Below are positions 10,766 to 55,422 of a stretch of 64,000 bases of DNA, in pieces. The DNA comes from an uncultured Chloroflexia bacterium (GTDB taxonomy: Bacteria; Chloroflexota; Chloroflexia; Thermomicrobiales; CFX8), in NCBI GenBank assembly GCA_963709995.1, contig CAVPYN010000011.1, positions 119,604-183,603 on the forward strand, given 5' to 3'. Position 1 is the first letter of the stretch. Each line of letters begins with the position of its first letter. Both the position numbers and the translations under genes were made by a program. The notes beneath the pieces are model-generated. The model was not told the DNA's origin, did no database searches, and saw only the letters and a list, made by a program, of their open reading frames with translations.

Positions 10766-10857
10766 GAATAGCTTCAACAAGTGTCTCCAGTCTTGTCCCG
10801 TGTCCCGTTGAGCCAACGCTTACCCAGCCCGGACATGATTGTGAGTAGGGTAGCCTG

Positions 10858-11712: not shown

Positions 11713-11718
11713 CGTTCC

Positions 11719-12567: not shown

Positions 12568-12704
12568 CGCTACCTGCCTCTCTTCCAATAACGAGCATGG
12601 CAACAGGGGTTCCGCTTCCCGGCTCCCGCAACGGCAATCCGGCACGAAGTCGAACACTCGGAGTCAAACCCAGCGCAGATCGCAGTCCGCGGCATCGTGC
12701 CTGC

Positions 12705-13562
12705 CTATGTCGGGGGATTCGCAGCTGCGGTGATCAACGCCCGCATGTAGCGGGCGAGCTCAATGCCATCGGACGGTCTGAAGCTGAATGAGCGCCAGCC
12801 AGTCCGCTCGACGCCCGGAAGCTTGACGACCTGATTGACCCGGGACTGGTGATCCAGATCCATCTCGACAATCGCGTCTTCCGGGAGCCTGTATGGCTTC
12901 ATCCTCGGCAGATCCCGCGTTGCTGCTTCAGCGCCGCCGCGGATCATGCGCTGGGACTCCCCGGGGTGACGATTGAGCGCGGCGGTCACCGAGTACCCAC
13001 GCTTGATCGCGACACCCACAACCTGGTCACCCAGGAGTTGACGTGTTTGCTCAACGGCGCGGTTGTCGCCAGCGACCATGGCAACCGGGACGCCGAAATG
13101 CCCTGCGATCAGGGCATTGATCCCGTATTCACCCATCGATGTCCCGTTAACCCGGATGTCATGCACCCAGCCGGTGAAGCTGTGCGCCAGTGGACCATCG
13201 GGCGTCCCCGCTCGAGCGTGGTAGCCGGTGAAGAAGACGGCATCAACGCCATCCTCGTCAACGCCGTGAACCATCAGCAACTCTTTGTCGAAACCGGAGA
13301 TGTAGCGCGCGCCCTCGTGCAGTTCGTCCGGGATGATGTTGCGCATGCCATCGTGCGAGTCGTTGACGATGATTTCAGTCGCCCCGCCGGCAATCGCGCC
13401 TTCGATGGCCGCGTTGACTTCCCGCGTCATCCGCAGGCGCGCGCGTTCGTACTCGACGGTTGATGTCGCCCTCCCACCGGAGCCCAGCTCCGGAGGAATC
13501 ACCTGCACCCAACTCACCACACCACAGGTGCCCTCCATGTCGGCGGATATCAGAATCTTCAT
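12705..13562 (-). CDS. dppA: M55 family D-aminopeptidase (DppA), paralog 3
   Basis: MKILISADMEGTCGV, VNDSHDGMRN, GYHARAGTPDGPLAH. Confidence 0.85.
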   Translation of the reverse strand: MKILISADMEGTCGVVSWVQVIPPELGSGGRATSTVEYERARLRMTREVNAAIEGAIAGGATEIIVNDSHDGMRNIIPDELHEGARYISGFDKELLMVHGVDEDGVDAVFFTGYHARAGTPDGPLAHSFTGWVHDIRVNGTSMGEYGINALIAGHFGVPVAMVAGDNRAVEQTRQLLGDQVVGVAIKRGYSVTAALNRHPGESQRMIRGGAEAATRDLPRMKPYRLPEDAIVEMDLDHQSRVNQVVKLPGVERTGWRSFSFRPSDGIELARYMRALITAAANPPT

Positions 13563-13743
13563 GCGTCTAGCCTCTCATTCGCGTGGAGATTGCCGGGCGC
13601 ATTGTAGCGTTGGAGTAGGGAACAGGTAACAGGAAAGTAGGAAAAGGACCAGACCAGGATGGTTTAACGTTGCAGCCTAAGCGAAGGCAAGACGCCACCC
13701 GCGCAGGAATGGGCAGAGCCACTCTGATACGCGGGTGGAAATC

Positions 13744-14043
13744 CTACGCTGCTAGCGCTTCCTCACGGAGGATACTCGCGATCTTGCCGAAGCTCCAGCC
13801 TTCTCGTTCCGAGCGGCGCTCGACCTGGGCAATGTGCTTGCACATGCCGGTGTACAGGTAGCCGTCGCACTCACATTCCCAACCGTGTACCGATCGGGTG
13901 ATGTGGTAGATCCCACGTCCATTCTGCGAACGGGACCAGTAGCAGCGTCGTGGCTCAACCTCGTACACACGCACTCCACGCTGATAGGCGCGGGCGCGAG
14001 CTTCAAAGAGTCGCGCAGTCAGTGGTTTCGTGAAATGCCTCAT
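13744..14043 (-). CDS. Small SWIM zinc-finger protein
   Basis: CECDGYLYTGMCKHIAQV matches the CxC...CxH SWIM signature. ATG 14043 is preceded by GAGGAG. Confidence 0.6.
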   Translation of the reverse strand: MRHFTKPLTARLFEARARAYQRGVRVYEVEPRRCYWSRSQNGRGIYHITRSVHGWECECDGYLYTGMCKHIAQVERRSEREGWSFGKIASILREEALAA

Positions 14044-14224
14044 TGCAGCATCTCCTCGTTCATCAGTTGCCAAATATGAACAAATGTTCGTACTAATCTT
14101 ACCATTTTCCATGACCGGAAGTCACATTTCAGCCGGGTCGATGGTCGAAAAGATGACGTAGTCCAAAACAGGCACTACAATAGGCATCGGGGTTTCTGAA
14201 CCACGCTACCGGGGGCGTTCCAGC

Positions 14225-15140
14225 GTGAAGAATCACGAATACGCAAGCCACGTCTCGACGTCGACGAGCGAAGCGGTTGCGCTCGACCGGGCGCGTCTGC
14301 TTGGCGCCGCGTCGCTAGCTGGCACGGTCATGTTGCTGGCGCTTGGCACTGTTCTGGCTGCCGCGGATGGTACATCCTCCTGTGAAGGCTGGCCGCTCTG
14401 CACCAGTGATTCAACAGCCCTGAGCATGCTGAACATCAGCCATCGCCTGGGAAGCTTGGCCCTGATCCTGGCAACCGGTGGGCTTGCCCTGTTGAGCTAT
14501 TCGCGATTGCGGCCCATGATCTGGCTCCATCGCCTCGCCGCCGCCGTCTTCATCCTGGTTCTGGGGCAGTCGGTGCTTGGCGGTCTCGGGGTCGCCTTCG
14601 ATTTTCCTGGTTGGGCAAGCGCGATCCATCTCAGCCTCGCTATGTCGATCAGCGATCGGACTTCTCGACGACCACGCTGCTGCTCGCGCCGTCCGCGCAG
14701 TCGCCGTGCCCGAGCCAAGTCGCGTCACTCGCGGGCGGCGCAACGGTAGCGCTCGCTCCTAACGCTGGTTGTTGCTGCGGCATTCGTCGGTCAGCATCGA
14801 AACGGGTGGCATCGGCAAGCCGCTGGTTCGGCCGGAATTCATCTTCCCATCTCTGCTTCTCGGAATTGGACTAACCGTCGCGCTCGCGGCGCGCGTTCGC
14901 TGGTCGCCAGGACATGCCACTTCTTCCGCGACGTCTCGCCGAAACAGCAGCGATCTCGCTCTCGCTGGCCGCTTTTGTCGTTCTCGCAGCCCACGGGCTG
15001 ACGCCGTTCCCGGCGGAGATGGGCGCAGCCGCGCTCGTTTTGGCGATGTTCGCTGGAATCTGCCTGACTGGCATCGTCATCTTCACCAATGCCGACTCAA
15101 TCGAGGCGGTCTCGGCGCAACCGTCACGGATGCTGACCTC
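14225..15140 (+). pseudogene. ctaA: Heme A synthase-like (CtaA/COX15) membrane protein; frame lost after about 14650
   Basis: CEGWPLC, HRLGS and IHLSLAM motifs are in ORF 14225..14749. Further TM helices appear in other frames (14769.., 14914..). The exact path is unresolved. Confidence 0.45.
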
Positions 15141-24855: not shown

Positions 24856-25233
24856 TCAATCCACTTGAGCCAGGCGGTGCTCGAAGGAGGAGTCCACATC
24901 AATCAACTCGAACGGCAGAGCCAGGATCAGCGCCGCACCCAAAAGGAAAAGTGCGAACGCAGGCGTCGGACTTTCGTCGAAGGTTTCCGGACTCTGTCGG
25001 AGCCAAAGTAAGCCCCCGATGGCAGGAATCATAGCCGCTACAATTACATTCACTACCTTGATAAGCAGACGATCTGGATAGATCGTGTCGAGCAAAAGGA
25101 ACGCAGCGAACGAAACTACAAAGCCCATTATGAATAGGCGGATTGCGCTGCTCAAGAAAAGCGCAAGACAAACATTGCGTACGTGCTTTACAGATGCGAC
25201 TAGCCAAGACATCTGACCACCCTCGGTACACAT
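24856..25233 (-). CDS. Small polytopic membrane protein, candidate immunity for the orphan RHS tip upstream
   Basis: About four hydrophobic helices. It lies about 150 nt downstream of orphan CT module 25381..26256 in an AT-richer stretch. Confidence 0.4.
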   Translation of the reverse strand: MCTEGGQMSWLVASVKHVRNVCLALFLSSAIRLFIMGFVVSFAAFLLLDTIYPDRLLIKVVNVIVAAMIPAIGGLLWLRQSPETFDESPTPAFALFLLGAALILALPFELIDVDSSFEHRLAQVD

Positions 25234-25380
25234 CTAACAACGAGACGGTCAGCGAGGCTACCACCAATAGTTCCCGTCGACACCATCTCAACCCAACGCG
25301 CACTGCGCGCTATTTCGTGCCGACACCATGCTTAGTCTATCCTCGCTGTCACCGAACGAACGCTCTTGGACGAGAGGTCA

Positions 25381-26543: not shown

Positions 26544-29500
26544 CTAGTATCCACCGCACTCTCGTCGTGCATCCTCAAGTGCCTGGACATCTGCCATGGT
26601 GATTCCAATGTCGAGTAGTAGATCCACTGTGGGATCAAATGATGCAAAGGAGGCCCCGGAAAGCGCTGCAGCCTGTGCACATTCGGGACTTGCGATCCCT
26701 GAATCCTCGCAGACAATCGCAAGCGCAGCGGCCGTGGCAAAATCGCCGATAGTGGCTCCTATTGCTGCCTGACCAGCCATTGCACTGTATGCTGCCGCAC
26801 AAGCAAAAGGCCCAAAGATACACAACGCTACCGTTCCGAGTATTGCCGAAGTTGCCGCGATTGCGGTAATCCCCAAAGCGATCAGGTCAAGCGCAACGGT
26901 TAGCTCAAGCTCAGAAAGGTTGCAATCACAGCCGGCGAACTCTGCTCGAATCGAATCTGACGGATCCAGTCGCGACACTCCTGGCACCGTACCATTTGGA
27001 GCATATACTGGGCAGTCATCGCTAGGCTCCATCGGTAGATCGTCAGGATCCTTCGACGGGGGCCGGTCCGTTGGCCGATCGCCTTGGTAGTGATCGAAAT
27101 CATCCTGAAGCAAAGCTAGGATCTCACCAATCACATGAAAAATCAGCGCCAGGATTACCAGAAGCGTGTAGGCGAAAACGATTGAGAGAGCCAGGCCTAT
27201 CGGCCCTCCCAGAAGTAGCAGGGGTAGCGAGGTTCTGACCAACGCGCCCCACATGACGAGCGCGACAATCAACCCTGCTAGGATCTCCATGCCCTGCTCG
27301 ACATCGTTGATCGTGTGCCCGGTGGGATCGGTGTAACGCATCGGGTTGTTGGCGGTGTAGGCATAGCGGTTGTAGCCCTGTGTCCCTGGCGCGTTCGGCT
27401 GCACCGTGTCGGCGCTCAGGAAGCGGCCGGTGTTGGGGTCGTAGTGGCGCGACCGCAGGTAGATGTCCCCGGTCGTCGCATCCGTCGGCTCGCCGGTGAA
27501 GCCGAACAGGCTGCTCGCGCCCGTCTGGTTTCTCGGCGCGCCAAAGACCGCGTAGTCTGATGAACCCGTCAGCGTTCCCGTGCCATCGGTCAGACCGCGC
27601 ACCGAGCCCAGCGCGTCGGTCAACGGATAGGTTGCGGCATTTGTCCCGTCTATCTGGGAGACGAGACCACCGGCATGAAGGTAACCGTTCGTCCCGTCAT
27701 CGACGAGCATCGGCAGCCCGCTGATCTGGTCGTAAATGTAGGTCGTCGTGTTCGCCCCGACCGTCTCGCTGACCTTCAATCCGTTGCCATCGTAGCTGTA
27801 GCTGACCGTGTTGCCACCGACCGTCGCCCCGGTCAAGCGGTTACGCCAGTCCCAGCTGTAGCTCTCTGCGCCAACCGCCGTCAGGTTGCCGGCCTGGTCG
27901 TAGGTGAAGGTGTTCGTGCCGTCGCTGGTCAGCTGGTCGGCGTCGTCGTAGGTGTTGGTCGCGATCGTGTTGCCGTTGAAGGTCTCGGTCAGCCGGTTGC
28001 CGTTGGCGTCGTAGGTGTAGCCAGCCGTGTCAGCATTGCTATAGGTCACACCGGTGACGCGGTTGAGCGCGTCCAGGGTGTAGCTCTCGCTGCCGCCGCC
28101 ATAGGCCATTGCCGTGCGGTTTCCGGCCGCATCGAGCGTATAGAGGTAGCTGAACTGACTGCCCAGCCCGCCGCCACCGTGGACGACCGAGGTCAGACGT
28201 CCCGCGCCGTCGTAGCCGTAGGTCGTCGAGAGGCCGTTGGGACGGGTCACGCCGGTGCGTTGGCCATCGACGTTGTAGCTGAAACCCATCACCCGGCTCT
28301 GCCAGTCGGTCAGGCTCGTCAGCTGGCCGACGGCGTCGTAAGCGTAGGTCGCCGTCCGTCCACCGGGCAGGGTCATGCTGCTGCGCCGCCCAGCGTTGTC
28401 GTAGGCGTAGGAGACGGTCCCATTCGGCGCGGTCACCGAGCTGATCTGCGATGCCGCGTCATAGCTGTAAGTCGTCGTCCCGGTCGGATCGGTCATCGAT
28501 GTCTGGCGGCCCAGATCGTCGTAGCTGTAGGAGATGCTGCCATTCGGATAGGTGACACCGGTCAGGTTATCGGCGGCATCGTAACTATAGCTGGCGGTGA
28601 TGTTGTTGGCATTGGTGCTGCTGGTGACGTTTCCGGCCAGATCGTAGCCGTAGCTCGTCGTCCGGTTGAGCGGATCGGTCTGGGTCAGCAGGTTGCCAAC
28701 CGTGTCGTAGGTCAGGGTCGTCACCTTGCCGCGCGGGTTAGTGAGGCTGGTCAAGCGGCCGCCGGCATCGTAACCAAAGGTGACGACACCGCTCAGGGCG
28801 TCGGTCATCGTCTTCTGCCGGCCAGCGCCATCATAGGTGTAGCTGATCGTGTTGCTATTCGGATCGGTCTCGCTCGTTAGCTGGCCAGCGTCGTCATAGG
28901 CGAAGCTGGTGCTGTTCCCCAGGGCATCGGTCACGCTCGTCAGCCGGTTGGCGGCATCGTAGGCGTAGGTCGTGACGCCGTTGAGCGGATCGGTCTCGCT
29001 GGTCAGGTTCCCGGCCGCGTCATAGGCGAAGGTCGTCGTCTTGCCACGAGGGTCGGTCATCGACACGCGCTGGTTGGCCCCGTCGTAGGTGTAGCTGGTC
29101 GTGTGGTTGAGCGGATCAGTCGTCGAAGACAGGTTGCCGCAGTCGTCGTAGACCGCTGTCGAGATGGCGCTATTCGGCAGCGTCGTGCTGAGCAGGCGCC
29201 CATTGGTGTCGTAGCTGAAGGAGATCGTCCGGTTGAGCGGATCGGTCATCGAGGCCAGCTGGCCTTTGCTATCATAGCTCCGGGTCGTCGTCTGATTCAG
29301 TGGATTGGTGACCGAGATCAGGTCACCGTTGTCGTTATAGGCGTAGGTTGTCACCCGGTTGAGTGGGTCGGTCTTGGTCAGCATGCGGTCGTTGTCATCG
29401 TAGGTGTAGGTCGTCAGCTTGTTGAGCGGATCGCCCTTGGTGATGACGTTGCCACGGCTGTCGTACTCGTAGTTGGTACGGTGGTCAAGCTGGTCCTCAT

Positions 29501-29948
29501 ACCAAAGCAGGTAGCCGTAGAAGTCGCGATTGTATTCCTGGACATTGCCGAGCGCGTCGGTGACCGAGGCCAGATTGCCTCTGAGGCCATACGCATAGGT
29601 CGTCGTGTGGTTGTTGGCATCGGTCTCGGTCAGCACCCGGCCGTTGGCGTCGTAGGTCCAACTCCAGACCTTGCCGAGCGGATCGGTCATGCTGGTCTGG
29701 TTGTCGGTGCCATCGTAGGTGTAGGTCCAGGTGTTGTTGAGCGCGTTCGTCTCCGTCAGCACGTTCCCATGCGCATCGAATGTATAGGTCATCGTGTGGT
29801 TGAGCGCGTTGGTGATCGTCGTCGGGTTGCCATCCTGGTCGTAGCTGAAGGTTGTCGTATTCAGGCAGGCATCGACGAGGGTGGTTGGGAGGTGCAGCGC
29901 ATTGTAGGAAATGGAGGCGCTTGGAGTTACCCCGGTTTCGTGGACAGT
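26544..29948 (-). pseudogene. RHS/YD-repeat protein, N-terminus removed at the IS3 junction; C-terminal hydrophobic toxin-like tip
   Basis: Dozens of YD repeats (YTYDxxGN/R...). The core ends ...RHYDPNTGRFLSADTVQPNAPGTQGYNRYAYTANNPMRYTDPTGHT at about 27312. The repeat frame stays open up to 29948, where it meets a stop next to the IS end. Confidence 0.85.
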
Positions 29949-29976
29949 TCATCGCTGGTTGGTCGGGTAGCTCCTT

Positions 29977-30846
29977 TCATGCAGCCACTGCCAACTTGAC
30001 GGCACGTTCGTAGGCAGCAGGCGAATGATAACCGAGTGCCGAGTGGCGCCGATGGGAGTTGTAGAAGCCTTCGATGTAGTCGAAGAGCGCGGTGCGAGCT
30101 TCGCGGTGGGTCCTGAAAGTGTGGCGGCGCAGCAGTTCACATTCCAGGGTCGCAAAGAAGGCCTCGGTAACGGCATTGTCGTAACAGTCGCCTTGGGAAC
30201 CCATCGAGGGCACAATCCCCGCTAGCTAGCAGCGTTGACCGAAGGTGAATGACGTGTACTGTGAGCCCTGGTCGGAGTGATGGATCACCCCCTGCGCCGG
30301 CCGCCGGTTCCACAAGGCCATCTCCAAGGCGGTCACGACGAGCTCGCTGCGCAGGTGGTCAGCCATCGCCCAGCCGACGATCCGACGACTGAAGACATCG
30401 AGCACGACAGCCAGGTAGAGAAAGCCGTTCCAGGTCGGGACGTAGGTGATATCCGCCGTCCAGAGCTGGTTCGGTGCGCTGGCCACGAAGCGGCGCTGCA
30501 CCCGATCGGGCGCTGGCACGGCGCGCGGTTCGCGCTGCGTGGTGCGCACGCGTTTCCGCCGATGACAACCCACGAGCCCCTCCGCCCGCATCAGCCGCGC
30601 GACACGCTTACGCCCACAGCGCACCCCATGGGCGGCGAGGTCGGCATGAATCCGTGGTGCCCCATACGTGCCGCGGCTCGTACGGTGGATCGTCCGGATA
30701 CGTTCCGTCAACTGGGCGTCGGCCTGACAGCGGGCCGAACGGCCCCGCCCGCGCCAGGCGTAGTATCCGCTCGTCGAAACACCCAGCATCCGACACATGG
30801 TCCTCACGGCATGATGAGCCTTCTCTCGCTCGACGAACTCAAACAC
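29977..30846 (-). pseudogene. IS3 transposase OrfB (DDE integrase core) interrupted by an in-frame TAG at 30226-30228
   Basis: ...HHSDQGSQYTSFTFGQRC TAG LAGIVPSMGSQGDCYDNAVTEAFFATLE... The two listed ORFs are the same frame separated by one stop. Confidence 0.8.
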
Positions 30847-30848
30847 GG

Positions 30849-31163
30849 CTATCGGCGTGAGTTGTCGGGCGCCCTCTGGGCGTGGGCGAAGAAGGCTGCG
30901 GCTTTTTTTAGGATCTCGCGCTCTTCACGCAGGATGCGGTTCTCACGGCGCAGGCGAGCCAATTCCTCGCGTTCACTCGTCGTCAGCCCATCGTGCCGAA
31001 CACCCGCATCGAGATCTGCTTGTTTGAGCCACTGGCGCAGTGTCTCGGTACTAATACCGAGATCTTCCGCAATGGCGCGTTGAGACTTGCCACTCGAACG
31101 CATGAGAGCGATCGCTTCGGCCCGGAACTCTGGTGGATACGGCGGTCGCGTCTTGCCGCCCAT
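30849..31163 (-). CDS. IS3 transposase OrfA
   Basis: MGGKTRPPYPPEFRAEAIALMRSSGKSQRAIAEDLGISTETLRQWLKQ...RLRRENRILREEREILKKAAAFFA. A GAGAAAGGAG ribosome-binding site precedes ATG 31163. Confidence 0.85.
   Translation of the reverse strand: MGGKTRPPYPPEFRAEAIALMRSSGKSQRAIAEDLGISTETLRQWLKQADLDAGVRHDGLTTSEREELARLRRENRILREEREILKKAAAFFAHAQRAPDNSRR
30903..30909 (-). promoter_or_regulatory. A7 slippery heptamer for programmed -1 frameshift, orfA to orfB
   Basis: The minus strand reads CTA AAA AAA GCC inside orfA. The -1 frame is open from here into orfB (KKSRSLLRPRPEGARQLTPIAVFEFVEREK...). Confidence 0.7.
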
Positions 31164-31230
31164 TGGGACTCCTTTCTCGGAATCAATCACTCCAAGTGTT
31201 GAGGTCTCCACTAAAGCGGGTCAACTCCAC

Positions 31231-31566
31231 AGTGCTCGGCGACAAGGGCTATGTCAGTGCGCCGGCTGCAGCTCAGCTTGCTGATCAGGCTGCTGTACGC
31301 TTGCTGACCGTGCCGCGTCGCAACCAGCACCGGCAACTGGCTCCACAGCAAGTCACCCTGCACAACCGCTGGCGCCACATCATCGAGACGATGACGAGTC
31401 AACTGGCTGGTCAGTTGCAGATCGAGACGATCGGGCCAAGAGCTTCTGGGGACTCTGTGCACGCCTCTACAGCAAGCTCACCGCCCATACTATCTGCCTG
31501 TACCTCAATCGTCTCCTCTCCACTGAAAACTATCTCCAGATCAAACACCTCGCCTTTCCCAACTAG
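31231..31566 (+). pseudogene. 3' fragment of an IS982-family transposase gene, truncated at the IS3 end and frame-broken
   Basis: VLGDKGYVSAPAAAQL...LLTVPRRNQ...RWRHIIETMTSQLAGQLQIE. After a shift it reads AKSFWGLCARLYSKLTAHTICLYLNRLL...IKHLAFPN and ends at TAG 31564-31566. Confidence 0.6.
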
Positions 31567-31599
31567 CACAAGGGTCTAGTACTAGCGGATGACAGGTAC

Positions 31600-31929
31600 T
31601 CAGATACTGAGAACTGTGGCGTGACCGACCAATATGGACAACCCTTCCCACAATTCGATCTTATCTCCAACTTTGACCGAGTTCCAGAACCTAGCCTCGA
31701 TGGGCCTAAGATAGGCTCGCGCACATTCTCCCGGAACAACTCGCTCCTGATCTACCCAGTGCAAGATCGCATCGTTGAAAAGCTTGTGAGAGCCTGCCAT
31801 ATGACCTATCCAGCACGTAGCATGGTATCCGTGCCAAACCGAATGTTGCCGACCTCCTTCGGCAGCAGTGAACAGCGTCAAGCAGATGTCTATACGTCGG
31901 GGCGCCGCAGCATCCGCCATGGCGTCCAT
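31600..31929 (-). CDS. Stand-alone EF-Tu domain III-like beta-barrel protein
   Basis: By-eye alignment to the EF-Tu C-terminal domain: ...TAAEGGRQHSVWHGY... versus KEEGGRHTPFFxGY; VVPGE versus VMPGD; ELWEGLSILVGHATVLSI versus AIREGGRTVGAGVVxKI. Confidence 0.5.
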   Translation of the reverse strand: MDAMADAAAPRRIDICLTLFTAAEGGRQHSVWHGYHATCWIGHMAGSHKLFNDAILHWVDQERVVPGECARAYLRPIEARFWNSVKVGDKIELWEGLSILVGHATVLSI

Positions 31930-32045
31930 GGCAACGCGTTCAAGAATTCCACTAGGCCTCCTACAGCAGAGTTGAGTTCGTTGAACCGATTTCCAGGAAC
32001 GTTCAATGCATATCGGCTAACTGTATGGATCAGTTCGAATGCTGC

Positions 32046-32300
32046 TTAATCCTTGAACCATCGCTTGTCTACGTTGTCAACATATGGAGTCGAAACTAAC
32101 TCCGATTCGGCACAACCCCAAGTCTCATCAAATCCATAAAACCAGACAAGATAAGACATCGGCTCGCTGGAATCATCGCCCTCATCCGCGTCTGGATCAC
32201 CTCGAGCAATCACAACCCCAAGCATCCCCGCCAAATGAGGCATAGAGAACACATCGTTTCGCAACTGTACTACGTCGTACAGATCATACTTTGCTGTCAT
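32046..32300 (-). CDS. Small acidic protein, candidate immunity for orphan RHS tip 3
   Basis: Starts 6 nt after the stop of 32307..33641. 84 aa, with an SH3-like pattern (YDVVQL...GMLGVVI...YLVWF). Confidence 0.45.
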   Translation of the reverse strand: MTAKYDLYDVVQLRNDVFSMPHLAGMLGVVIARGDPDADEGDDSSEPMSYLVWFYGFDETWGCAESELVSTPYVDNVDKRWFKD

Positions 32301-32306
32301 GTCAGT

Positions 32307-33641
32307 CTATCTGCGTTGTGATGCAAGTTCGCGGACCCTTCCGTCTGGCGATACGTTGACCCGATTCACGTCAACTCCATACTGGTCTCGGAAGAATCTT
32401 CGCCCTTTCGAAGAGAGTTGAACATCCCACTCAAAGCTGAACGCCTGATCCTGACCGTGATACGGTCCCTTCTGCCAAACATTGCCGAAATCGTCCCGGA
32501 AACCGTTGCCTGTCCTTGGCAAACGCTGTTCCTTCCATCGCTTCGGCAGCAAGTAGAAGAACTCTCCAGATGTGGGAAGACCAGCCTTTTGTATGCGTTT
32601 GACGATCTCGCTTGGTGGCCCGCCGCCGCCTCCACCTGTCATACATCCATAGCCAGCGGCGAATAAGAGGTCGCCGAGATTGAACCCGCCACCAAACGCA
32701 ACAGCCCAAAGGAATTCCTCAGTGACCTCCTCTACGATCCCATTGAAACAACTTCGCCAATCCGGCTCAACCGGATAGGTCGTCACCAGCGTGCCGATAT
32801 CCTCGTTCACCAAAGCTGGCGCCAGATCACTGGGAGCCAGGATATCGGGGAAGAAATTCCAGGGATCGATCAAAACGAACATCAAGCCGAGGATGTAGAG
32901 CAACGTCGCGGCAATCAGCGTGGCAACGATGAAGACGATGAGTCCCGCAACCATGCCCACGAGTGGCACCACAAACAGCACCATCAGCGACTGGATCGCG
33001 GCAATCAACGAAGTGAGCAAGGGCGCGATGGCAATGCGCAGGACGACGGCCTCAGCCGCCGCGATTGCCCCCAGCCGCACGCCATTCGCATTGGCCTGCG
33101 GGGCGACAGTTTCCGCGGAACCGATTGCCGCCGACAGTCGCAACGTGATCACGTTGAGCAGGTTGTTGATCGCCGAGTTGCCCAGCTGGCTGATCGTTGC
33201 CGCTTCGTGACCACTCGGGTCCACCCAGGTCGCGGGATTATTGGCGACATAGCTGTAGCGGTTATAGCCCTGCGTGCCCGCTGCATTGGGCTGGATCGTA
33301 TCAGCGCTCAGGAAGCGCCCCGTCGAAGGCGCGTGATAGCGTGCTCGCAGATACAGATTACCGGTCGAAGCGTCGGTCTGCTCGCCAGTAAACCCAAAGA
33401 TGGACGATGTCCCGGCCTGCGCACGTGGGGTGCCGAAGGCCTCGTACTCGGCCGAACCACTCAGCGCCCCACTGCCGTCCGCAATCCCGCGCACGGACCC
33501 CAGCGCGTCAGCCAGCAACCAGTCCGTCGTGCCCTGGCTGTCGGTCTGTGAGAGCACGCCACCGGCATGCACGTAGCCCTTCGCGCCATCATCGATCAGG
33601 AGCGGCAGCCCCCCGACGCGATCGTAGACGTACCAGCTTGG
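32307..33641 (-). pseudogene. Orphan RHS C-terminal module 3 (5'-truncated core end + TM segment + soluble toxin-like domain)
   Basis: The frame opens after TAA 33642-33644. It reads SWYVYDRVGGLPLLIDDGAKGYVHAGGVLSQTD...FGFTGEQTDASTGNLYLRARYHAPSTGRFLSADTIQPNAAGTQGYNRYSYVANNPATWVDPSGHE and then a unique tail. Confidence 0.8.
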
Positions 33642-38209: not shown

Positions 38210-39208
38210 ATGGAGTATCTTCCGGATGGGCGTAGCTACGAACTCAGCAAAGAACTGCTCGAAGGGGCTATTGACATTCATGTCCACGCCGGGCCGCACC
38301 TCCCAAGCAGCCCGCGCAGGGTAGATCCGTTCGACGCGGCAATCGAGGCTCGGGAAGCTGGCATGCGGGCGATCGTCCTGATGGATGTCTTCGCGATGAG
38401 CACCGGCACGGCATGGCTCGTCGAACGGGTCGTTGACGGTATCGACGTCTTTGGCGGGATCATTCTCAACACAGCCCAGGGAGGCATGAACCCGCGCGCC
38501 GTGCGGACGGCCCTGGCTTATGGCAAAGCGGCGAAGTTCGTCAGCTTCGGCGCTCACTCCACTCGCTACCAGGCCGGCAAGGAAGGGCGCATCGTCAACG
38601 GCCGATTCCAGTCGCTCGCCGAGATCTACCCTGACTTCGCCCGGGACGAGTTGCCGATGACAATCGAAATCCCTGACGAAGAGCCCTCCCGCGAACTGGA
38701 CCAGATACTCCGCATGATTGCCGAACATCCCGACGTCTACCTCAACACCGGCCACGTCTCCAATGACGAAGCCAAGCGGCTCGTCTCGCTCGCCGGAACA
38801 TATGGCATTTCAAAGGTGCTGGTCGCCAGCTCGGTCACCAAAAATCTCAGCATTGACGAGCAGATCGAGCTCGCGGAAACCGGAGCCTACCTGGAACACA
38901 CGCTGGCGGCGTTTACCCACACGACCCCGATTCCAAAGACGCACTATTATGTCGAGCGAGAGTACACGTCGATCGACGAAGGCATGGTCGATGGACCAGG
39001 CGGGGGCATCCGCGCCGTCGCTGAGCAGATTCGGGCCGTGGGCGCCGAGCATTGCATCATCGCGACCGACTTCGGCGTCTATACCCTGCCCACTCCGGTC
39101 GAAGGGCTGCGGGAGTTCATCGCCAGCTTGCTCGATCTCGGCATTTCCGAAGAAGAAATCCGCATGCTGACATCCACCAATCCCGAGCGGTTGCTTGGCT
39201 TGCCCTAG
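38210..39208 (+). CDS. Amidohydrolase-like TIM-barrel protein
   Basis: IDIHVHAGPH metal-binding motif near the N-terminus, later GHVS and ATDFG motifs. Confidence 0.6.
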   Translation: MEYLPDGRSYELSKELLEGAIDIHVHAGPHLPSSPRRVDPFDAAIEAREAGMRAIVLMDVFAMSTGTAWLVERVVDGIDVFGGIILNTAQGGMNPRAVRTALAYGKAAKFVSFGAHSTRYQAGKEGRIVNGRFQSLAEIYPDFARDELPMTIEIPDEEPSRELDQILRMIAEHPDVYLNTGHVSNDEAKRLVSLAGTYGISKVLVASSVTKNLSIDEQIELAETGAYLEHTLAAFTHTTPIPKTHYYVEREYTSIDEGMVDGPGGGIRAVAEQIRAVGAEHCIIATDFGVYTLPTPVEGLREFIASLLDLGISEEEIRMLTSTNPERLLGLP

Positions 39209-39253: not shown

Positions 39254-39673
39254 GTGAGCGGCAGAATAGAGAACCACGGTGGATTTAGTGTCGTGCGGGC
39301 TGGAGGAGACGGCATTCATTTCGGCGCGTACCACAACGCCGCTGGCATCAACGCCCACACGGTGGGATCGACCGGCCTTTCGATGGATCTCCAGATGATC
39401 CCGCCGGGCGCGGTATCACCACCGCATGTGCATGCCGGTTTTGAAGTTGCCTTGTACGTGTTGTCCGGAACCATCATTCATCGCTGGGGCGCTCACCTGG
39501 AGCATGAATGCGAGGCTTCGAGCGGGGATATGATCTACGTCTTGCCAGATCTCCCCCATCAGAGCCTCAACGCCAGCAATACTGAGCCGGTCAAACTGAT
39601 CGTTGCCCGGACCACGGCAGACGGGGCAACGGGTAACGTTCCCTACGATCTGCCTGGCCCCGACCGCGATTGA
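39254..39673 (+). CDS. Cupin domain protein
   Basis: PPGAVSPPHVHAGFEVALYVLSG...GDMIYVLPDLPH two-motif cupin signature. Confidence 0.7.
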   Translation: MSGRIENHGGFSVVRAGGDGIHFGAYHNAAGINAHTVGSTGLSMDLQMIPPGAVSPPHVHAGFEVALYVLSGTIIHRWGAHLEHECEASSGDMIYVLPDLPHQSLNASNTEPVKLIVARTTADGATGNVPYDLPGPDRD

Positions 39674-39730: not shown

Positions 39731-41257
39731 TTGGGAACAGAAACCGGACAGGCATCGATGAGCGCAATTGCACTTGACACCAAAGAACAGTTGGATCTCG
39801 CCGGCGCGGGAGCGATCTTGCTCGTCTCCTGTTATGAACTTGGTCACCAGCCGCTGAATCTGGCGTTTCCGATGGCCTATCTTCGTAAAGCCGGCTACCG
39901 CCCTTCTGTTGTCGACACCTCTATCGACCGCCTCACGGATGAAGACATCCTGGAAGCGCGACTGGTCGCGATTTCTGTCCCGATGCACACTGCTCTCCGG
40001 CTTGGCGTCCAGATCGCAGAGCAGGTGCGGTTGCTCAATCCTGGCGCGTTGATCTGCTTCTACGGGCACTATGCCTGGCTCAACGCCGACTATCTTCTTC
40101 GCGAGATCTGCGACTTCGTCATTGGCGGCGAGTTCGAAGCCCCGCTCCTGCGGCTGATCCGGTCGCTGGAAACAGGAACCGGCGAACCGATCGAAGGTGT
40201 CAGCAGCAGGGATGTTCGCTCCGCGCCAGCGCTCGAACGCATCGATTTCTTTAGTCCCGACCGCGGCGCGCTTCCAGAGGCGGCCGAATATGCCTGGTTG
40301 GTCGATGGCGAGCGCAATGTCCCGGCCGGGTACACCGAAGCGACGCGGGGATGTCATCACACCTGTCATCATTGCCCGGTCGTCCCGATCTACAACGGCC
40401 GCTTCTTTGCCGTCCCGCGGCCAGTCGTTGTCGAAGACATCCGCCGGCAAATCATGGATGGCGCCGGTCACATCACCTTTGGCGACCCGGACGCGTTGAA
40501 TGGCCCGACCCATTTGCTGCGAATCCTGCGCGCGGTCCACGAGGAGTTCCCGTCGGTCACCTTTGACCTCACAACGAGGATCGAACATATCATCCTCAAC
40601 CGGGAGATCATGTCCGAGTTGCGCGAACTTGGCTGCATCTTCATCATTTCAGCCGTGGAATCGGTCAGCGATCTGGTGCTCGCGAAAATTGACAAGGGGC
40701 ACAACAAACGCGATATCGTCACCGCGCTTGGCATCTGCCGTGCCGCCGGGATCGCCATGCGACCATCGCTGCTGCCCTTCACCCCCTGGACGACGCTCGA
40801 CGATTATCTTGAACTCCTCGACTTCATCGAGAAGCATGAACTGATCGAGCATGTCGATCCGGTCCATCTCTCGATTCGCCTGCTGGTCCCGCCCGGCTCG
40901 GCACTCCTCGAACAGCCGGATACTCAGGAATGGATCGGTCCGCTCGACGAGGCCTCCTTCACCTACACATGGACCCATGCCAATCCCTTGGTGGATCAGC
41001 TTCAGCGTGACGTAGCGAAGATCGCTGAAGTTGCGATCGAGGAGGGATGGGATGGGTACCGGACATTCACCGAAATACGGGCGACGGCTCATCGAGCAGC
41101 CGAACAACCGCCTCCGCCCATCCCACCGCGTCGCACCGCGGGCAAAGCCCCTCCCCGGCTCACCGAGTCATGGTTCTGCTGAGCGGAACCCACCGCGAGC
41201 CAGTTCGGCTCGCAGCAAGGGAACAGTCAGGGATTCTCGAACCTCGTCGACGAGTAA
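39731..41257 (+). CDS. B12-binding radical SAM protein with CUAEP tail; TGA 41180-41182 read as selenocysteine
   Basis: CHHTCHHC (CxxxCxxC) cluster motif and an N-terminal B12-binding-like domain. The tail TGC TGA GCG GAA CCC reads C-U-A-E-P. The frame stays open for 24 codons to TAA 41255-41257. Confidence 0.7.
41195..41213 (+). promoter_or_regulatory. SECIS-like hairpin
   Basis: GCGAGCC-AGTTC-GGCTCGC, a perfect 7-bp stem starting 12 nt after the in-frame TGA, with GU in the apical loop. Confidence 0.55.
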
Positions 41258-41365
41258 CTGACGCTAGCCGAGCATCGGTTCGCGGCATCCACGATGGTCT
41301 TCGCGCGGCTCGCATCTTCGGTTAGAATGCCCGCCACGATTCGGACCCACAAGCGGGAGGCGGCC

Positions 41366-42920: not shown

Positions 42921-44534
<1,614 letters not shown>

Positions 44535-44548
<14 letters not shown>

Positions 44549-44930
44549 CCGCTACGAACAGGGCATGAAGATCCGGCGCGAGGTGCTTGGCGACGAGCAC
44601 GTCGAGCGCTCGATCGCCGCCCAGACCAGCTTCGACGCCGGTTTCCAGCGTTTCATCACTGAGAGCGCCTGGGGATCCGTCTGGGCCAGCGATGGGCTCG
44701 ACCGCCAGACGCGGCATATGCTTACCATCGCGATCCTGGCCGCGCTTGGCCGCGAGCACGAACTGGCGCTGCACCTCCGCGCCACGCACAATACCGGCGT
44801 CACGCCAGCAGAGGTCGCCGAGGTGTTACAGCAGGTTGCTGTCTACGCCGGTGTCCCGGCCGCCAACAGCGCATTCGCGGTCGCCAGGAGAATCTATGCT
44901 GAGATGGGAGTGGATCTGGATGACGACTGA
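44535..44930 (+). CDS. pcaC: 4-carboxymuconolactone decarboxylase
   Basis: YEQGMKIRREVLGDEHVERS...ESAWGSVWASDGLDRQTRHMLTIAILAALGREHELALHLRA. Confidence 0.85.
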
Positions 44931-45137
44931 TCGATTTCTGAGTCGGAACTCGATGACGACAAGGCTCGTCATCCCGCCGCTGCCGAAAGGTCACGGTACC
45001 ACCGGTGTGGTGGTAGCAGAACCAGGCCCGCCGATCATGTTTCGCGGGCACAGACTCGAAGTGGCTCGGAATAGCAACTCGATTTCGGATAGCGTTTCCG
45101 TGTACTTTGGAAACATGTCAGGAGAGGAGTACAGACT

Positions 45138-45869
45138 TTGAGTGCGCTTTCAAGACGCCTCTCTTCCTTAGATTGGTCCGTCCAGCCGCCCTATCTCTAC
45201 CCGGCCTACGAATCGACGTTACTGCGCGCCCCCCAACAGCCGCTCGTGCCATTGCCGCAAACGCTGTCCGAGATGACCGGCCCGGTATATGGTCACGACG
45301 ACATCCAGCCGCTCGATCACGACCTCACCCGCAACGCCGTTGCCACCGGAGCCCCGATCGGCGAGCGAATCATCGTCACCGGGAGGATCCTCGACGAGCG
45401 CGGCCAGCCGGTTCCGAACGCGTTGGTCGAAATCTGGCAGGCAAACGCCGCCGGCCGCTATCGACACCTTGTCGACCAGCATGACGCGCCACTCGACCCC
45501 AACTTCACCGGCGCCGGGCGCGTGCTGACCGGCCGTAATGGCGAGTATCGCTTCATCTCGATTCGTCCGGGCGCATACCCATGGAAGAATCACGAGAACG
45601 CCTGGCGTCCACCCCACATCCACTTTTCCGTCTTCGGCCGCGCGTTCATCTCACGCCTGGTGACGCAGATGTATTTCCCCGGAGATCCGCTCCTGGCGCT
45701 CGACCCGATCTATCAGGGCGTGCCTGATGAGAAGGGTCGCCAACGCCTGGTCGCCTGCTACGCCCACGATGTCACCGAGCCGGAGTGGGCGCTCGGCTAC
45801 CGCTTCGATATCGTATTGAATGGGAGCAGGATGACGCCTTTTGAGGATCCAGATGACAACGATGAATAG
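45138..45869 (+). CDS. pcaH: Protocatechuate 3,4-dioxygenase beta subunit
   Basis: VEIWQANAAGRYRH, WRPPHIHFSVFG, VTQMYFPGDPL. Confidence 0.9.
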   Translation: MSALSRRLSSLDWSVQPPYLYPAYESTLLRAPQQPLVPLPQTLSEMTGPVYGHDDIQPLDHDLTRNAVATGAPIGERIIVTGRILDERGQPVPNALVEIWQANAAGRYRHLVDQHDAPLDPNFTGAGRVLTGRNGEYRFISIRPGAYPWKNHENAWRPPHIHFSVFGRAFISRLVTQMYFPGDPLLALDPIYQGVPDEKGRQRLVACYAHDVTEPEWALGYRFDIVLNGSRMTPFEDPDDNDE

Positions 45870-46450
45870 ATCCAGATTACAGCAAACACCGAGCCAGACC
45901 GCCGGCCCGTTCTTCCACTTCGGAATGGTCGAAAAGGGCAACGAAAACAATCTCGTCAACGATGCAGGCAGGCGGCGAGCGCATCACGATCCAGGGTCGC
46001 GTGCTCGACGGCGAGGGTGAAGCGGTGCCGGACGCCTTGCTCGAAATCTGGCAGGCGGACGCCAACGGATTCTTTCACCACCAGGAGGACCCTCACTGGG
46101 AGAACGCAGATCCCCATTTTCGTGGCTTCGGTCGAGCCGACACCTCTCGGAGGCGGCCAGTTCACCTTCCGGACGATCAAGCCTGGCCGGTGCCGTTCGA
46201 CAGTCGTCGCTCCAGGCGCCGCACATCAACGTGCGCATTTTTCGCCCGCGGCATGCTCACTCACGCCTACACCCGCTTCTACTTCTCGGATGAGGCGGAG
46301 GCGAACGCCAACGATCAGATTCTCAACATCGTCGACCCGGAGCGTCGTCACACGCTGATTCTCCAGCGCCAGGGCAGCAGCGATCCACCCGTCTACGTCC
46401 TGGACGTGAAGCTGCAAGGCAAAGACGAGACGGTGTTTTTCGACCCATGA
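45862..46450 (+). pseudogene. pcaG: Protocatechuate 3,4-dioxygenase alpha subunit, about five frame breaks
   Basis: The segments TPSQTAGPFFHFG (frame 1), ERITIQGRVLDGEGEAVPDALLEIWQADANG (2), GGGQFTFRTIKPG (3), PVPFD (2), QAPHINVRIF (1) and ARGMLTHAYTRFYF (2) are all recognisable. The last break is at T-run 46238-46242. Confidence 0.8.
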
Positions 46451-47778
46451 TCGGCGGCTCGCGAATTCTGGGCGCGGTCTACAGCGATCCCGAGATCGCC
46501 ATGATCTTCTCGGACGAGCACTTCGTTGCCAAGATGCTGCGGGTCGAAGTCGCGCTGGCCCGTGTACAGGAACGGCTCGGCATCATCCCGGAAGGAACGG
46601 CCGAGCGGGTGGAAAGCGTCGTGAACACGCTCGACATCGACCTCGCGCAAATCCAGCGGAGCATGGAGCAATCCGGCATCCCGACGATCGGGATGGTCGA
46701 CCAGTTGCGCGCCGCCGTCGGTGGCGAAGCGGCCTCGTACGTCCACTGGGGCGCGACCACCCAGGACATCATGGATACGGCGCTCGTTCTCCAGATCCGC
46801 GCTGCTCTCGATCAGATGGAGGCCGAGCTGCGCCGGATCATCGCCAACCTCGCCGACATGGCCGAGCGGCACCGCGACACGCTCATGGCTGGCCGTACAA
46901 AATCGCAGCAGGCGTTGCCGATCACCTTCGGGCTGAAAGTGGCCGGATGGCTTGCGCCACTGGTCCGGCATCAAGAGCGGCTGGAAGAGATGAAACCGCG
47001 CCTGCTCGTCGTCCAGTTCGGTGGCGCGGTCGGGACGCTGGCATCGCTGGGGGAGCGTGGCATCGAGACTATGCTAGCTCTGGCCGCCGAACTCCAACTT
47101 GAAGCGCCGCCGGCGCCCTGGCACACGCAACGAGATAGTCTCGCCGAACTTGCTGGCTGGCTCTCGATGGTTAGCGGTAGTTTGGGGAAGATGGCTCAGG
47201 ACATTATCTTGCTAGCCCAGACGGAGATCGGTGAGGTTCGCGAGAGCGACGATCCCTCGCGCGGCGGCTCCAGCACGATGCCCCAGAAGAGCAACCCGGT
47301 CATCAGTGAAGCGATCATCGCCGCCGCCCGTGCCAACGCCAATCTCGTCGCCACCATGCACCAGACGATGATCCAGGAGAACGAGCGCGCCAGTGGCGCC
47401 TGGCAGATCGAGTGGCTGACCTTGCCGCGCATGTTCGAACTGACCGCCAGCGCCCTCAACAACGCCCTTCATCTGTCGGAAAACTTCGTTGTCGATAGAG
47501 CCAGGATGCGCGCCAATCTCGCTGCCACCAACGGCCTGCTGCTCGCCGAAGCGTTCAATCTCGCGCTCGCCCCCTACCTCGGCCGCGCAGAAGCCAAGGC
47601 CGTTATCCAGTCCGCCGTCCAGACCAGCCTCGCCGAGGATCGTCCCTTCGTTGACATCCTTCGGGAACGGGTTGACGCGGAAATTGACTGGGACGCGCTG
47701 CGTGATGAGTCGAACTACCTCGGCGCTTCGACGACCCTCATCGACCGAGTTCTTCGATTCCAGGGAAGCAGGACCTAA
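46447..47778 (+). CDS. pcaB: 3-carboxy-cis,cis-muconate cycloisomerase
   Basis: Fumarate-lyase superfamily signature GSSTMPQKSNP, in pca cluster context. Confidence 0.85.
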   Translation: MIGGSRILGAVYSDPEIAMIFSDEHFVAKMLRVEVALARVQERLGIIPEGTAERVESVVNTLDIDLAQIQRSMEQSGIPTIGMVDQLRAAVGGEAASYVHWGATTQDIMDTALVLQIRAALDQMEAELRRIIANLADMAERHRDTLMAGRTKSQQALPITFGLKVAGWLAPLVRHQERLEEMKPRLLVVQFGGAVGTLASLGERGIETMLALAAELQLEAPPAPWHTQRDSLAELAGWLSMVSGSLGKMAQDIILLAQTEIGEVRESDDPSRGGSSTMPQKSNPVISEAIIAAARANANLVATMHQTMIQENERASGAWQIEWLTLPRMFELTASALNNALHLSENFVVDRARMRANLAATNGLLLAEAFNLALAPYLGRAEAKAVIQSAVQTSLAEDRPFVDILRERVDAEIDWDALRDESNYLGASTTLIDRVLRFQGSRT

Positions 47779-53928: not shown

Positions 53929-54544
53929 ATGCATGACACGATGACGAAAAAACCAGACCACGCCGAACTCTTCGATATGGCTACGGAGCAGCATGGGTAC
54001 TTCACCGCAGCGCAGGCTCGCTCCGCCGGCATCGGTTGGGATCTGCTTTCGTACCACACCAAGACCGGGCGTTTCATGCGGGTTGAGCATGGACTGTACC
54101 GTTTTCGCGACTTCCCGCCCGTACTGGCGCGAAGAAGTCGTGGCCGCCTGGCTCGCCGTCGGCAAAGACGTCGCCGTCGTTTCCCACGAAAGTGCCCTCG
54201 ACCTCTACGAGCTCAGTGATGTCATTCCCAATGCGGTCCACCTGACGATCCCGCGGTCGAAGCGCTACCTCCGACCGCCACCGGACGTCGCAGTCCATAC
54301 GACCACTGAGCCACTCCAACAGTCCGAAATCCTGAGCAAGGATGGGATGCGAGTCACGACGCCAACACGTTCGATCGTCGACGCTGCCGAGAGTGGAACG
54401 GCTATGGAACAGATCGAGATGGCGGTTGCGCAGGCGCTTGATCGCGGCCTCACGACCGAGCGCCGATTGCGCACGGCGGCGGCATCACGCAGCAAACGCG
54501 TTATCCAACTCATTGATCGCGCTATTGAGTTCGCACGCGCATGA
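53929..54544 (+). pseudogene. abiEi: AbiEi-family antitoxin, one frame break near 54113-54122
   Basis: FDMATEQHGYFTAAQARSAGIGWDLLSYHTKTGRFMRVEHGLYRFRDFPP, then in the next frame YWREEVVAAWLAVGKDVAVVSHESALDLYELSD.... Confidence 0.7.
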
Positions 54545-55422
54545 GATACACGACAGCCAGGGCCTTCCGTCAGGCGCTTGAACAGCGCTTGAAGACTGAG
54601 TCTGCACGTTCCGGTGTTCCTCTTCCTCGACTCCGCAAGCTTGTTGTGTTCGACCGTCTTCTGGCCCGACTCCTGATCGTCGCGCCAAATCGCTGGCTCC
54701 TCAAAGGAGCGCTGGCGCTTGACTATCGCATTGGCGCTGAGTATCGCACCACGCGCGATCTAGATCTGACCCGGCAAGATGACGAACCAGCGGCAACTGA
54801 TGATCTTCTGAGTGCCCAGGAGCTAGACCTCGGCGACTACTTCGGTTTTGAAATCGGACAAGCCTCCGCAGTAGGTCCCGGCATTGACGCGGTGCGCTAT
54901 AGCCTGACAGCACAACTTGCCGGCTACAGGTTCGAGACCGTTGGGCTAGACATTTCATTCAGTGATCAACGCTTCGCGACTCCCGAGATTCTGCAAGCAC
55001 CTGGCCTACTGCAGTTCGCCGAAATCGATCCCATTTCCGTGCCTGCTATTCCGATCGAGCAACACGTTGCGGAAAAGATTCACGCATACACGCGCGTTTA
55101 CCAGGGCCGGAGATCGAGCAGCCGAGCCAAGGATCTCGTCGATCTGGTGGTAATCCAGAATTCTATCCGATTGGAAGCGGGCCGACTCAGGGACGCATTG
55201 GAACTGACGTTTGCGGTCCGCGCATCACAAGTTCTACCGACGGAGCTACCACCACCACCTGATAATTGGGCGCGCAGCTATGCAACCCTGGCAAGAGAGG
55301 TCGGGATCGATCCAAGCCCAATCGAGGGACACCGGATTGCGGCCAAATTCCTTGATCCCGTCCTTGCTGAGCGAATCTCTCGTGATGTGTTCTGGATCCC
55401 ACGCGCTCGGCGCTGGGAGTAG
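54541..55422 (+). CDS. abiEii: AbiEii/AbiGii nucleotidyltransferase toxin
   Basis: ATGA overlap with abiEi. [11 protein letters not shown]...[25 protein letters not shown] motif. Confidence 0.75.

Follow-up and report, generated by a model that had tools for sequence, protein, structure and literature searches.

An in-frame UGA and a candidate selenocysteine insertion hairpin at the end of a CUAEP-tail radical SAM gene from an uncultured Chloroflexia bacterium

NCBIfam holds an equivalog family named 'CUAEP/CCAEP-tail radical SAM (seleno)protein' (NF040546, curated cutoff 500 bits), on which we found no text in the literature beyond one sentence in a preprint, where the family is given as uncharacterised and the CU motif as rare among selenoproteins (Haft, 10.1101/2022.07.06.499078). 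A 2026 review of prokaryotic selenoproteins does not include it. The gene considered here lies in a 64,000-nucleotide stretch of contig CAVPYN010000011.1 ('the window' below always means the whole of this stretch) and was called as an open reading frame (ORF) running from 39758 to 41182 and ending ...L-T-E-S-W-F-C before a TGA. It almost certainly extends past that TGA, with UGA-encoded selenocysteine (Sec) making the protein 25 residues longer, and we hold it highly probable that the extended frame encodes a 499-residue CUAEP-tail radical S-adenosylmethionine (SAM) selenoprotein, in which a downstream hairpin directs the decoding of UGA as Sec. The finding is real; it is not new, because both the family and its selenoprotein nature had already been curated in NCBIfam, and the window gene is an ordinary member. 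What the present analysis adds is comparative proof (the distribution of Sec and Cys in one alignment column, and a hairpin that is TGA-specific and covarying), a resolution of the length of the tail, and a measure of how widely the annotation of these genes is truncated.

The second-best family match of the window protein is to ArsL (NF040542), the C–As bond-forming radical SAM enzyme of arsinothricin biosynthesis. ArsL cleaves the C-gamma–S bond of SAM, which yields a 3-amino-3-carboxypropyl species, and makes a C–As bond; the cysteines of its C-terminal RCCLKC motif bind As(III) and are needed for product formation, but not for SAM cleavage. A neighbouring Cys and Sec at a C-terminus are familiar from mammalian thioredoxin reductase, with its Gly-Cys-Sec-Gly end and its selenocysteine insertion sequence (SECIS) element of the eukaryotic type, in the 3'-untranslated region. 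The bacterial SECIS model has a loop of 3–9 nt, a stem of 4–16 bp, a distance of 16–37 nt from UGA to loop, and a minimum free energy (MFE) of –7.5 kcal/mol or lower, with a G within the first two loop positions that is usually followed by G or U (PMC13188914).

Family membership and the codon that follows WFC

As called, the ORF scores 697.9 bits against NF040546, in a match that ends at position 457 of the 468 in the profile; if translation is continued across the TGA and Sec is given the score of Cys, this rises to 718.7 bits (+20.8) and the match covers positions 1–467. The profile thus expects about ten more residues, and these are supplied by the read-through. The original prediction had named a family with a CUAEP or CCAEP tail and had placed the protein in it; such a family exists, and the protein belongs there by either score. 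Beyond its full-length, above-cutoff match, the window protein shares with the family the C-U-A-E-P string, the CxxxCxxC motif and the order of domains, and differs in nothing of substance, its 24-residue tail overshooting the profile end by about 14 residues, as it does in the closest relatives. The string TGC-TGA-GCG-GAA-CCC, the hairpin and the open frame of 24 codons were all found just where they had been described (Table 1).

The description of the protein as a 'B12-binding radical SAM' enzyme was sound in its second part, the Radical_SAM domain (Pfam PF04055) being recognized at 49.6 bits against a cutoff of 29.5, and weak in its first, the N-terminal domain matching the B12-binding domain (PF02310) at 26.9 bits, under the cutoff of 32.1. 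Translation most likely starts at the ATG at 39758, not at the TTG at 39731; the ATG gives 474 amino acids up to the TGA, identical to the database protein P0001.

What, then, stands in the rest of the family at the position of the TGA? The original prediction had proposed to see whether Cys or Sec occupies this column, and the answer is that it always has either TGA or a Cys codon. The column could be read at 78 sites, made up of the window, 73 named-genome loci (of 80 homologous loci, numbered here with the prefix L) and four close relatives: WFC is followed by TGA in 57 of them and by TGC or TGT in 21, and by no other codon, neither TAA nor TAG occurring. In the 73 named-genome loci and the window the codons are TGA (53), TGC (15) and TGT (6), and in the four closer relatives (72–77% identity) TGA throughout. 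Where the extended ORFs of TGA-type genes actually terminate, all three stop codons are in use (TAA 11, TAG 21 and TGA 22), and only some 45% of ORFs in the window terminate with TGA, so the exclusive use of TGA in this column is not ordinary termination. The motif AEPT..Q[F/L] follows in frame after TGA and Cys alike, and its A, E and P codons differ from gene to gene at the third position only.

Sec and Cys forms are interleaved in Chloroflexota and Ktedonobacteria (L013, L017, L024, L031 and L040 against L014, L015, L020, L033 and L045), from which we deduce that there have been repeated switches from Sec to Cys or from Cys to Sec. The Cys-form genes of two Nitrospirota loci (L047 and L054) retain five of the seven stem pairs of the hairpin described below, possibly as a result of recent conversion.

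Truncated annotation of these genes is near-universal. Among the best 120 database homologues, 119 were called as ending exactly at ...ESWFC, including entries that NCBI has named as members of the family and the RefSeq coding sequence (CDS) in the complete genome of the cultured Thermomicrobium roseum. The exception, P0058, reads WFC-C-AEPLEDPSGPVASQVRMVDQPLR, i.e. WFC-C-AEP followed by 20 further residues.

The length of the open frame had been thought excessive for a tail motif, leaving the true C-terminus in doubt. This doubt can be set aside. Over the loci, 16 residues is the median length of tails that follow Sec (range 10–75), and 19 that of tails that follow Cys (range 12–29). In the clade made up of the window gene and its four closest relatives, all five genes remain open for 23–32 codons past the TGA, with a tail consensus AEPTASQ[F/L]G[S/A]Q..[N/H]S.GF[S/P].. 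and shared residues beyond the hairpin, while the Cys-form P0058 and the TGA-form gene of T. roseum have identical tails of 23 residues. Given clade tails of this length that are conserved as protein, a C-terminus at the TAA at 41255 is reasonable. A perfect 12-nt palindrome, CTCGTC/GACGAG (window positions 41243–41254), codes for the last four residues, L-V-D-E, directly before the TAA; it is not followed by a T-run.

The gene model should accordingly extend over 39758–41257 and carry Sec at residue 475. Members of the family occur widely among soil and sediment phyla (Thermomicrobiales, Ktedonobacteria, Planctomycetota, Acidobacteriota, Gemmatimonadota and Nitrospirota), and the truncated models drop precisely those residues that are most likely to hold the substrate, so expression of an annotated ORF would yield a protein without the part that is most likely essential.

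The hairpin downstream of the UGA

The original prediction had also pointed to a perfect hairpin 12 nt past the TGA with G-U in its loop, and had likened it to a bacterial SECIS element. The hairpin is as described: a 12-nt spacer (41183–41194) is followed by a perfect inverted repeat, with arms of 7 nt that are 100% complementary (seven of seven pairs) and lie 5 nt apart around the loop AGTTC. Such a structure can arise by chance at an appreciable rate, since of the 2,007 TGA trinucleotides counted over the two strands of the window, 19 (0.95%) precede a perfect hairpin whose stem has 7 bp or more and whose spacing and loop are compatible with a SECIS element; the window hairpin alone is therefore suggestive and not decisive, and it is the comparative data that settle the SECIS question. 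Set against the bacterial model, the hairpin falls within every bound, with a 5-nt loop AGUUC (G at loop position 2, then U), a 7-bp stem GCGAGCC/GGCUCGC, a UGA-to-loop distance of 19 nt and an MFE of –12.8 kcal/mol, and the likeness to a SECIS element is borne out further by the specificity of the hairpin for TGA loci and by its covariation.

For the comparison, 50 TGA loci and 21 Cys loci were examined in a fixed register after the TGA (5' arm at nt 13–19, loop at nt 20–24, 3' arm at nt 25–31). At least five contiguous pairs closing the loop were present in 44 of the 50 TGA loci and in none of the 21 Cys loci; in the six TGA loci that failed in this register, the hairpin is shifted by a base or has a 4-nt loop. 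The loci are mutually related and such counts are not independent events, which takes something from the weight of these numbers in favour of Sec, while the contrast between TGA and Cys loci controls for kinship. The TGA set includes 34 different combinations of arms, and 88.6% of its cells are paired, against 41.5% in the Cys set; 65 cells in the TGA set are changed on both sides. The covariation score is 0.457 for the TGA loci, a value reached in none of 500 shuffles (slid controls gave at most 0.207), and 0.147 for the Cys loci, no better than their own slid controls. Likewise, a folding energy of –7.5 kcal/mol or lower was obtained for the 19-nt segment in 46 of the 50 TGA loci and in none of the 21 Cys loci (Mann–Whitney p = 7e-11). 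The fold z-score of the 84-nt region is only –1.27; the signal lies in the short 19-nt hairpin itself and in the comparison among loci, and not in the overall fold.

The same covariation can be read in the protein. Tail residues 5–6 and 9–10 switch as pairs across the loci (AD..GP, EG..DP, ES..GS, RD..GP and, in the window, AS..GS; columns 41192–41215, L001–L080), as the codons for these residues make up the arms of the SECIS stem, and such paired switching is not seen in Cys-form genes. As parts of the protein, these stem residues are unconstrained, and they covary so that the pairing is kept, whereas the loop, (C)AGUUN, consists of Gln-Phe/Leu codons that are conserved in Cys-form proteins too. 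We see in this a clean case of RNA structure shaping protein sequence, with pairs of tail residues covarying to maintain the stem. In comparison with the common stem GCGGACC/GGTCCGC, that of the window has matched changes on both arms (GAC to AGC, GTC to GCT), which argues that the pairing has been under selection in the window lineage.

A stable, GC-rich stem-loop of this kind (–12.8 kcal/mol) directly 3' of a called stop codon might also be taken for a terminator, an attenuator or some other regulatory structure that follows a real stop and has no link with Sec. It is, however, followed by no T-run, and no terminator-like site was predicted there; it lies inside an in-frame peptide that is conserved in Cys-form genes too, and it occurs only with TGA, although Cys-form genes would need a terminator equally, after their real stops. 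We regard a regulatory role of this sort as very improbable indeed.

In the reading that we hold highly probable, the hairpin acts as a SECIS element: the UGA does not terminate translation, and the hairpin, lying within the CDS 12 nt downstream, would recruit SelB with Sec-tRNA(Sec) to the ribosome. SelB would presumably bind the hairpin itself, Sec would be inserted beside Cys474, and translation would then go on via AEPTASQFGS... to the TAA.

Table 1. Positions in the window of the features of the radical SAM (rSAM) gene and of its upstream partner genes
Feature	Coordinates	Strand	Remarks
Proposed full-length selenoprotein CDS	39758..41257	+	499 codons (474 + Sec475 + 24-residue tail) + TAA
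Radical SAM cluster motif C199-HHT-C203-HH-C206 (CxxxCxxC)	40352..40375	+	Three Cys invariant in 35 homologues
TGC-TGA, proposed Cys474-Sec475 dyad	41177..41182	+	TGC 41177-41179; TGA 41180-41182, the stop in the ORF track
C-terminal tail AEPTASQFGSQQGNSQGFSNLVDE, 24 residues	41183..41254	+	In-frame translation after TGA; AEPT..Q[F/L] conserved after both TGA and Cys
GCG GAA CCC (A-E-P)	41183-41191	+	Codons directly after TGA
Bacterial SECIS-type hairpin	41195..41213	+	Arms GCGAGCC 41195-41201 and GGCTCGC 41207-41213; loop AGTTC 41202-41206
TAA, proposed true stop	41255..41257	+	End of read-through frame
DUF6282 (amidohydrolase-like) gene	38210..39208	+	Clade-specific upstream partner; Pfam PF19799, 156 bits
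Cupin_2 gene	39254..39673	+	Clade-specific partner; Pfam PF07883; ends 84 nt upstream of rSAM start

Selenocysteine machinery and Thermomicrobium roseum

Several observations weigh against the decoding of this UGA as Sec. Within the 64-kb window we found no tRNA-Sec (ARAGORN reported no tRNA of any kind) and no selA, selB or selD (tblastn with E. coli SelD, SelB and SelA), and with the same three queries none was found in 125 kb of the megaplasmid of T. roseum. No Rfam family matches the hairpin, either with the whole window at gathering thresholds or with positions 41100–41350 at E up to 10, and the literature gave no experiment on any member of the family. ARAGORN found no tRNA-Sec over 84 loci. 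A 98-nt 'tRNA-Gln(ctg)' reported by that program just downstream of the rSAM gene in L084 (11979–12076, minus strand) was considered as a tRNA-Sec, but Rfam found no tRNA there at E up to 1 and it is probably a false positive; a match to HIV-1 SL4 in 41100–41350 (E = 6.8) was likewise put down to chance.

The lack of Sec machinery in the window, together with the fact that gene callers and RefSeq end the CDS at the TGA, would suit a reading in which the TGA is a genuine stop and the product a 474-residue protein ending in ...WFC, Sec decoding having been lost or termination being dominant, and the downstream sequence a decaying relic. A relic would show neither a perfect stem, nor a conserved tail, nor synonymous-only change. 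The window hairpin has all seven of its pairs and carries lineage-specific changes on both arms, the tail is open in all five members of the clade with residues conserved past the hairpin, and the A, E and P codons vary synonymously only. A genuine stop is for these reasons disfavoured, and we consider it improbable.

Decoding of the UGA as Sec implies that the source organism carries selA, selB, selC and selD, and some indirect support for this comes from related loci. Homologues of selD lie near TGA-form rSAM genes in L042 (827–1795, within 8 kb) and in L063 (4–261, within 1.5 kb), the order in the latter being selD, ATP-grasp, rSAM, Nfu, with selD cut by the end of the contig. T. roseum DSM 5159, a cultured organism of the same order, has a TGA-form gene 63% identical to that of the window on its megaplasmid (L087:11956–13392), and although RefSeq names the product (WP_012643191.1) as a member of the CUAEP family, it ends the CDS at the TGA. 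Read through, this protein has the C-terminus ...ESWFC-U-AEPLEDPSGPVASQVR. The megaplasmid (NC_011961.1) also carries a formate dehydrogenase (fdh) CDS (L088:45469–48654) with an in-frame TGA at residue 193 (...ENQARI-U-HSSTVPG...), which RefSeq annotates straight through. We take ENQARI-U-HSS to be the canonical Sec site of FdnG-type enzymes. The fdh TGA is followed by a 12-nt spacer and the hairpin GUCCCC-GGUCU-GGGGAC, with a 6-bp stem and the loop GGUCU, in the same geometry as in the window. Thus, a Sec-type fdh in T. roseum and selD genes near the rSAM genes of L042 and L063 lend support, of an indirect kind, to Sec decoding. On the use of Sec in Thermomicrobia, we found nothing specific in the literature.

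More generally, the window hairpin resembles fdh SECIS elements (those of T. roseum and of the Zhang and Gladyshev consensus, PMC13188914) in being a stem-loop inside the CDS and 3' of the UGA, with a small loop having G and then U, and a UGA-to-loop distance of 18–19 nt. It differs from them in that its AGUUN loop is fixed by conserved Gln-Phe/Leu codons, in its location in the last 25 codons and not in mid-gene, and in being matched by no Rfam model.

The sequence by itself is silent on which residue is inserted, and Cys evidently works at this column in 21 homologues, so a further reading would have the UGA decoded as Cys or Trp, by SelB-independent read-through or by a mis-acylated tRNA. 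The geometry of the hairpin, its G-U loop and its fixed spacing are, however, the signature of SelB-dependent insertion, and the fdh selenoprotein gene of T. roseum uses the same geometry; nor is any general reassignment of UGA evident, TGA being the stop codon of about 45% of window ORFs. Decoding as Cys or Trp thus has very little to commend it, and Sec remains by far the more probable residue.

Downstream of fdh in T. roseum come genes encoding a 4Fe-4S subunit, NrfD and FdhE. The rSAM gene of L087 is flanked by a divergent gene for a pyridoxal phosphate-dependent aminotransferase (10530–11741) and a convergent gene for a major facilitator superfamily transporter (13599–14876), and an arsC arsenate reductase gene lies some 12 kb away (24923–25378); the proximity of arsC to the rSAM gene may be a coincidence.

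Possible chemistry and genomic surroundings

In sequence searches of Protein Data Bank chains, the window protein had no match. A Cys-form homologue was compared by its predicted structure (AlphaFold), which has a confidence (predicted local distance difference test, pLDDT) of 86 overall and below 50 in the tail, the latter being weak evidence as only one row of the alignment contained the tail. The best Foldseek matches of this model were AprD4, TsrM, OxsB, MgmA, CysS and TokK (E from 6e-18 to 1e-12; template modelling scores 0.5–0.69). The model shares with AprD4 and with the cobalamin-dependent radical SAM enzymes that make up the rest of this list an N-terminal domain of Rossmann-like fold and, after it, the radical SAM barrel. 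Identity to these six proteins is only 13–20%, however, none of them has a CU tail, and the B12-binding match of the window protein is sub-threshold.

Among characterised proteins, ArsL is the nearest relative. The window protein scores 308.4 bits against NF040542, which does not reach the cutoff of 450, over positions 1–410 of 423, that is, all but the tail, and plasmid-borne ArsL copies from Bacillus and Priestia are about 36% identical to it. The CUAEP proteins are a sister family of ArsL, with a common architecture that includes a short, Cys-rich C-terminal tail. The three cysteines of RCCLKC are replaced in the window protein by WFC-U-AEP..., with two chalcogen residues of which one would be Sec, and the RCCLKC motif itself is absent; nor are there arsM (methyltransferase) or arsQ (permease) neighbours of the kind found in ArsL clusters, their place being taken in the window by genes for DUF6282, cupin and LTD-domain proteins. 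Like mammalian thioredoxin reductase, the window protein would have adjacent Cys and Sec on a C-terminal extension that may be flexible (to judge from the low pLDDT of the modelled tail), but the folds are unrelated, and the dyad, which is penultimate in thioredoxin reductase, is followed by 24 residues in the window protein.

By analogy with ArsL, we suggest tentatively that, at the radical SAM active site, a flexible Cys-Sec dyad might hold a soft metal or metalloid substrate, or might cycle as a redox-active selenenylsulfide. More speculatively, and with a good deal less confidence, CUAEP enzymes might be non-canonical radical SAM enzymes like ArsL, in which a soft metalloid or chalcogen bound by Cys and Sec would receive the 3-amino-3-carboxypropyl group from SAM, giving a new organo-element amino acid that, at the 25 loci with an adjacent ATP-grasp gene (see below), could be built into a peptide antimetabolite; the use of Sec would then be due to its binding the element better than Cys. 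The points that tell against these functional proposals are that the analogy with ArsL rests on about 36% identity, that the tails differ in sequence and in number of Cys, and that the ArsL cutoff is missed.

Across the loci there is no universal partner gene. The most frequent neighbour is a gene for an ATP-grasp protein of the L-amino-acid-ligase type (PF13535 + LAL_C2), which adjoins the rSAM gene in 25 loci (including L013, L017, L021, L022, L027, L029, L030, L032, L034, L038, L042, L044, L045 and L047) from several phyla, with both Sec and Cys forms; other recurrent neighbours encode YggX (23 loci), DUF169 (17), a formyltransferase (17) and Nfu (9). The whole of the window lacks these recurrent partners; in it, the rSAM gene is preceded by the DUF6282 and cupin genes (Table 1), an order found only there and in its nearest relatives, L084 and L085.

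The other genes of the window, housekeeping and accessory, are unrelated. Downstream of the rSAM gene, and syntenic in L083–L085, is a set of genes (43038–47778, plus strand) for the protocatechuate branch of the beta-ketoadipate pathway: a PobA-like FAD monooxygenase, a CMD-family decarboxylase, the beta and alpha subunits of protocatechuate dioxygenase and a Lyase_1 cycloisomerase. On the minus strand there are three tandem paralogues of Peptidase_M55 (D-aminopeptidase; 10858–11712, 11719–12657 and 12705–13562) and a polymorphic-toxin region (26544–33572), which includes a 1,082-residue protein with 17 RHS repeats (26544–29792) and a protein with a C-terminal Ntox17 domain (32307–33572). Finally, a gene at 54541–55422 encodes an AbiEii-type nucleotidyltransferase toxin of a type IV toxin–antitoxin system.

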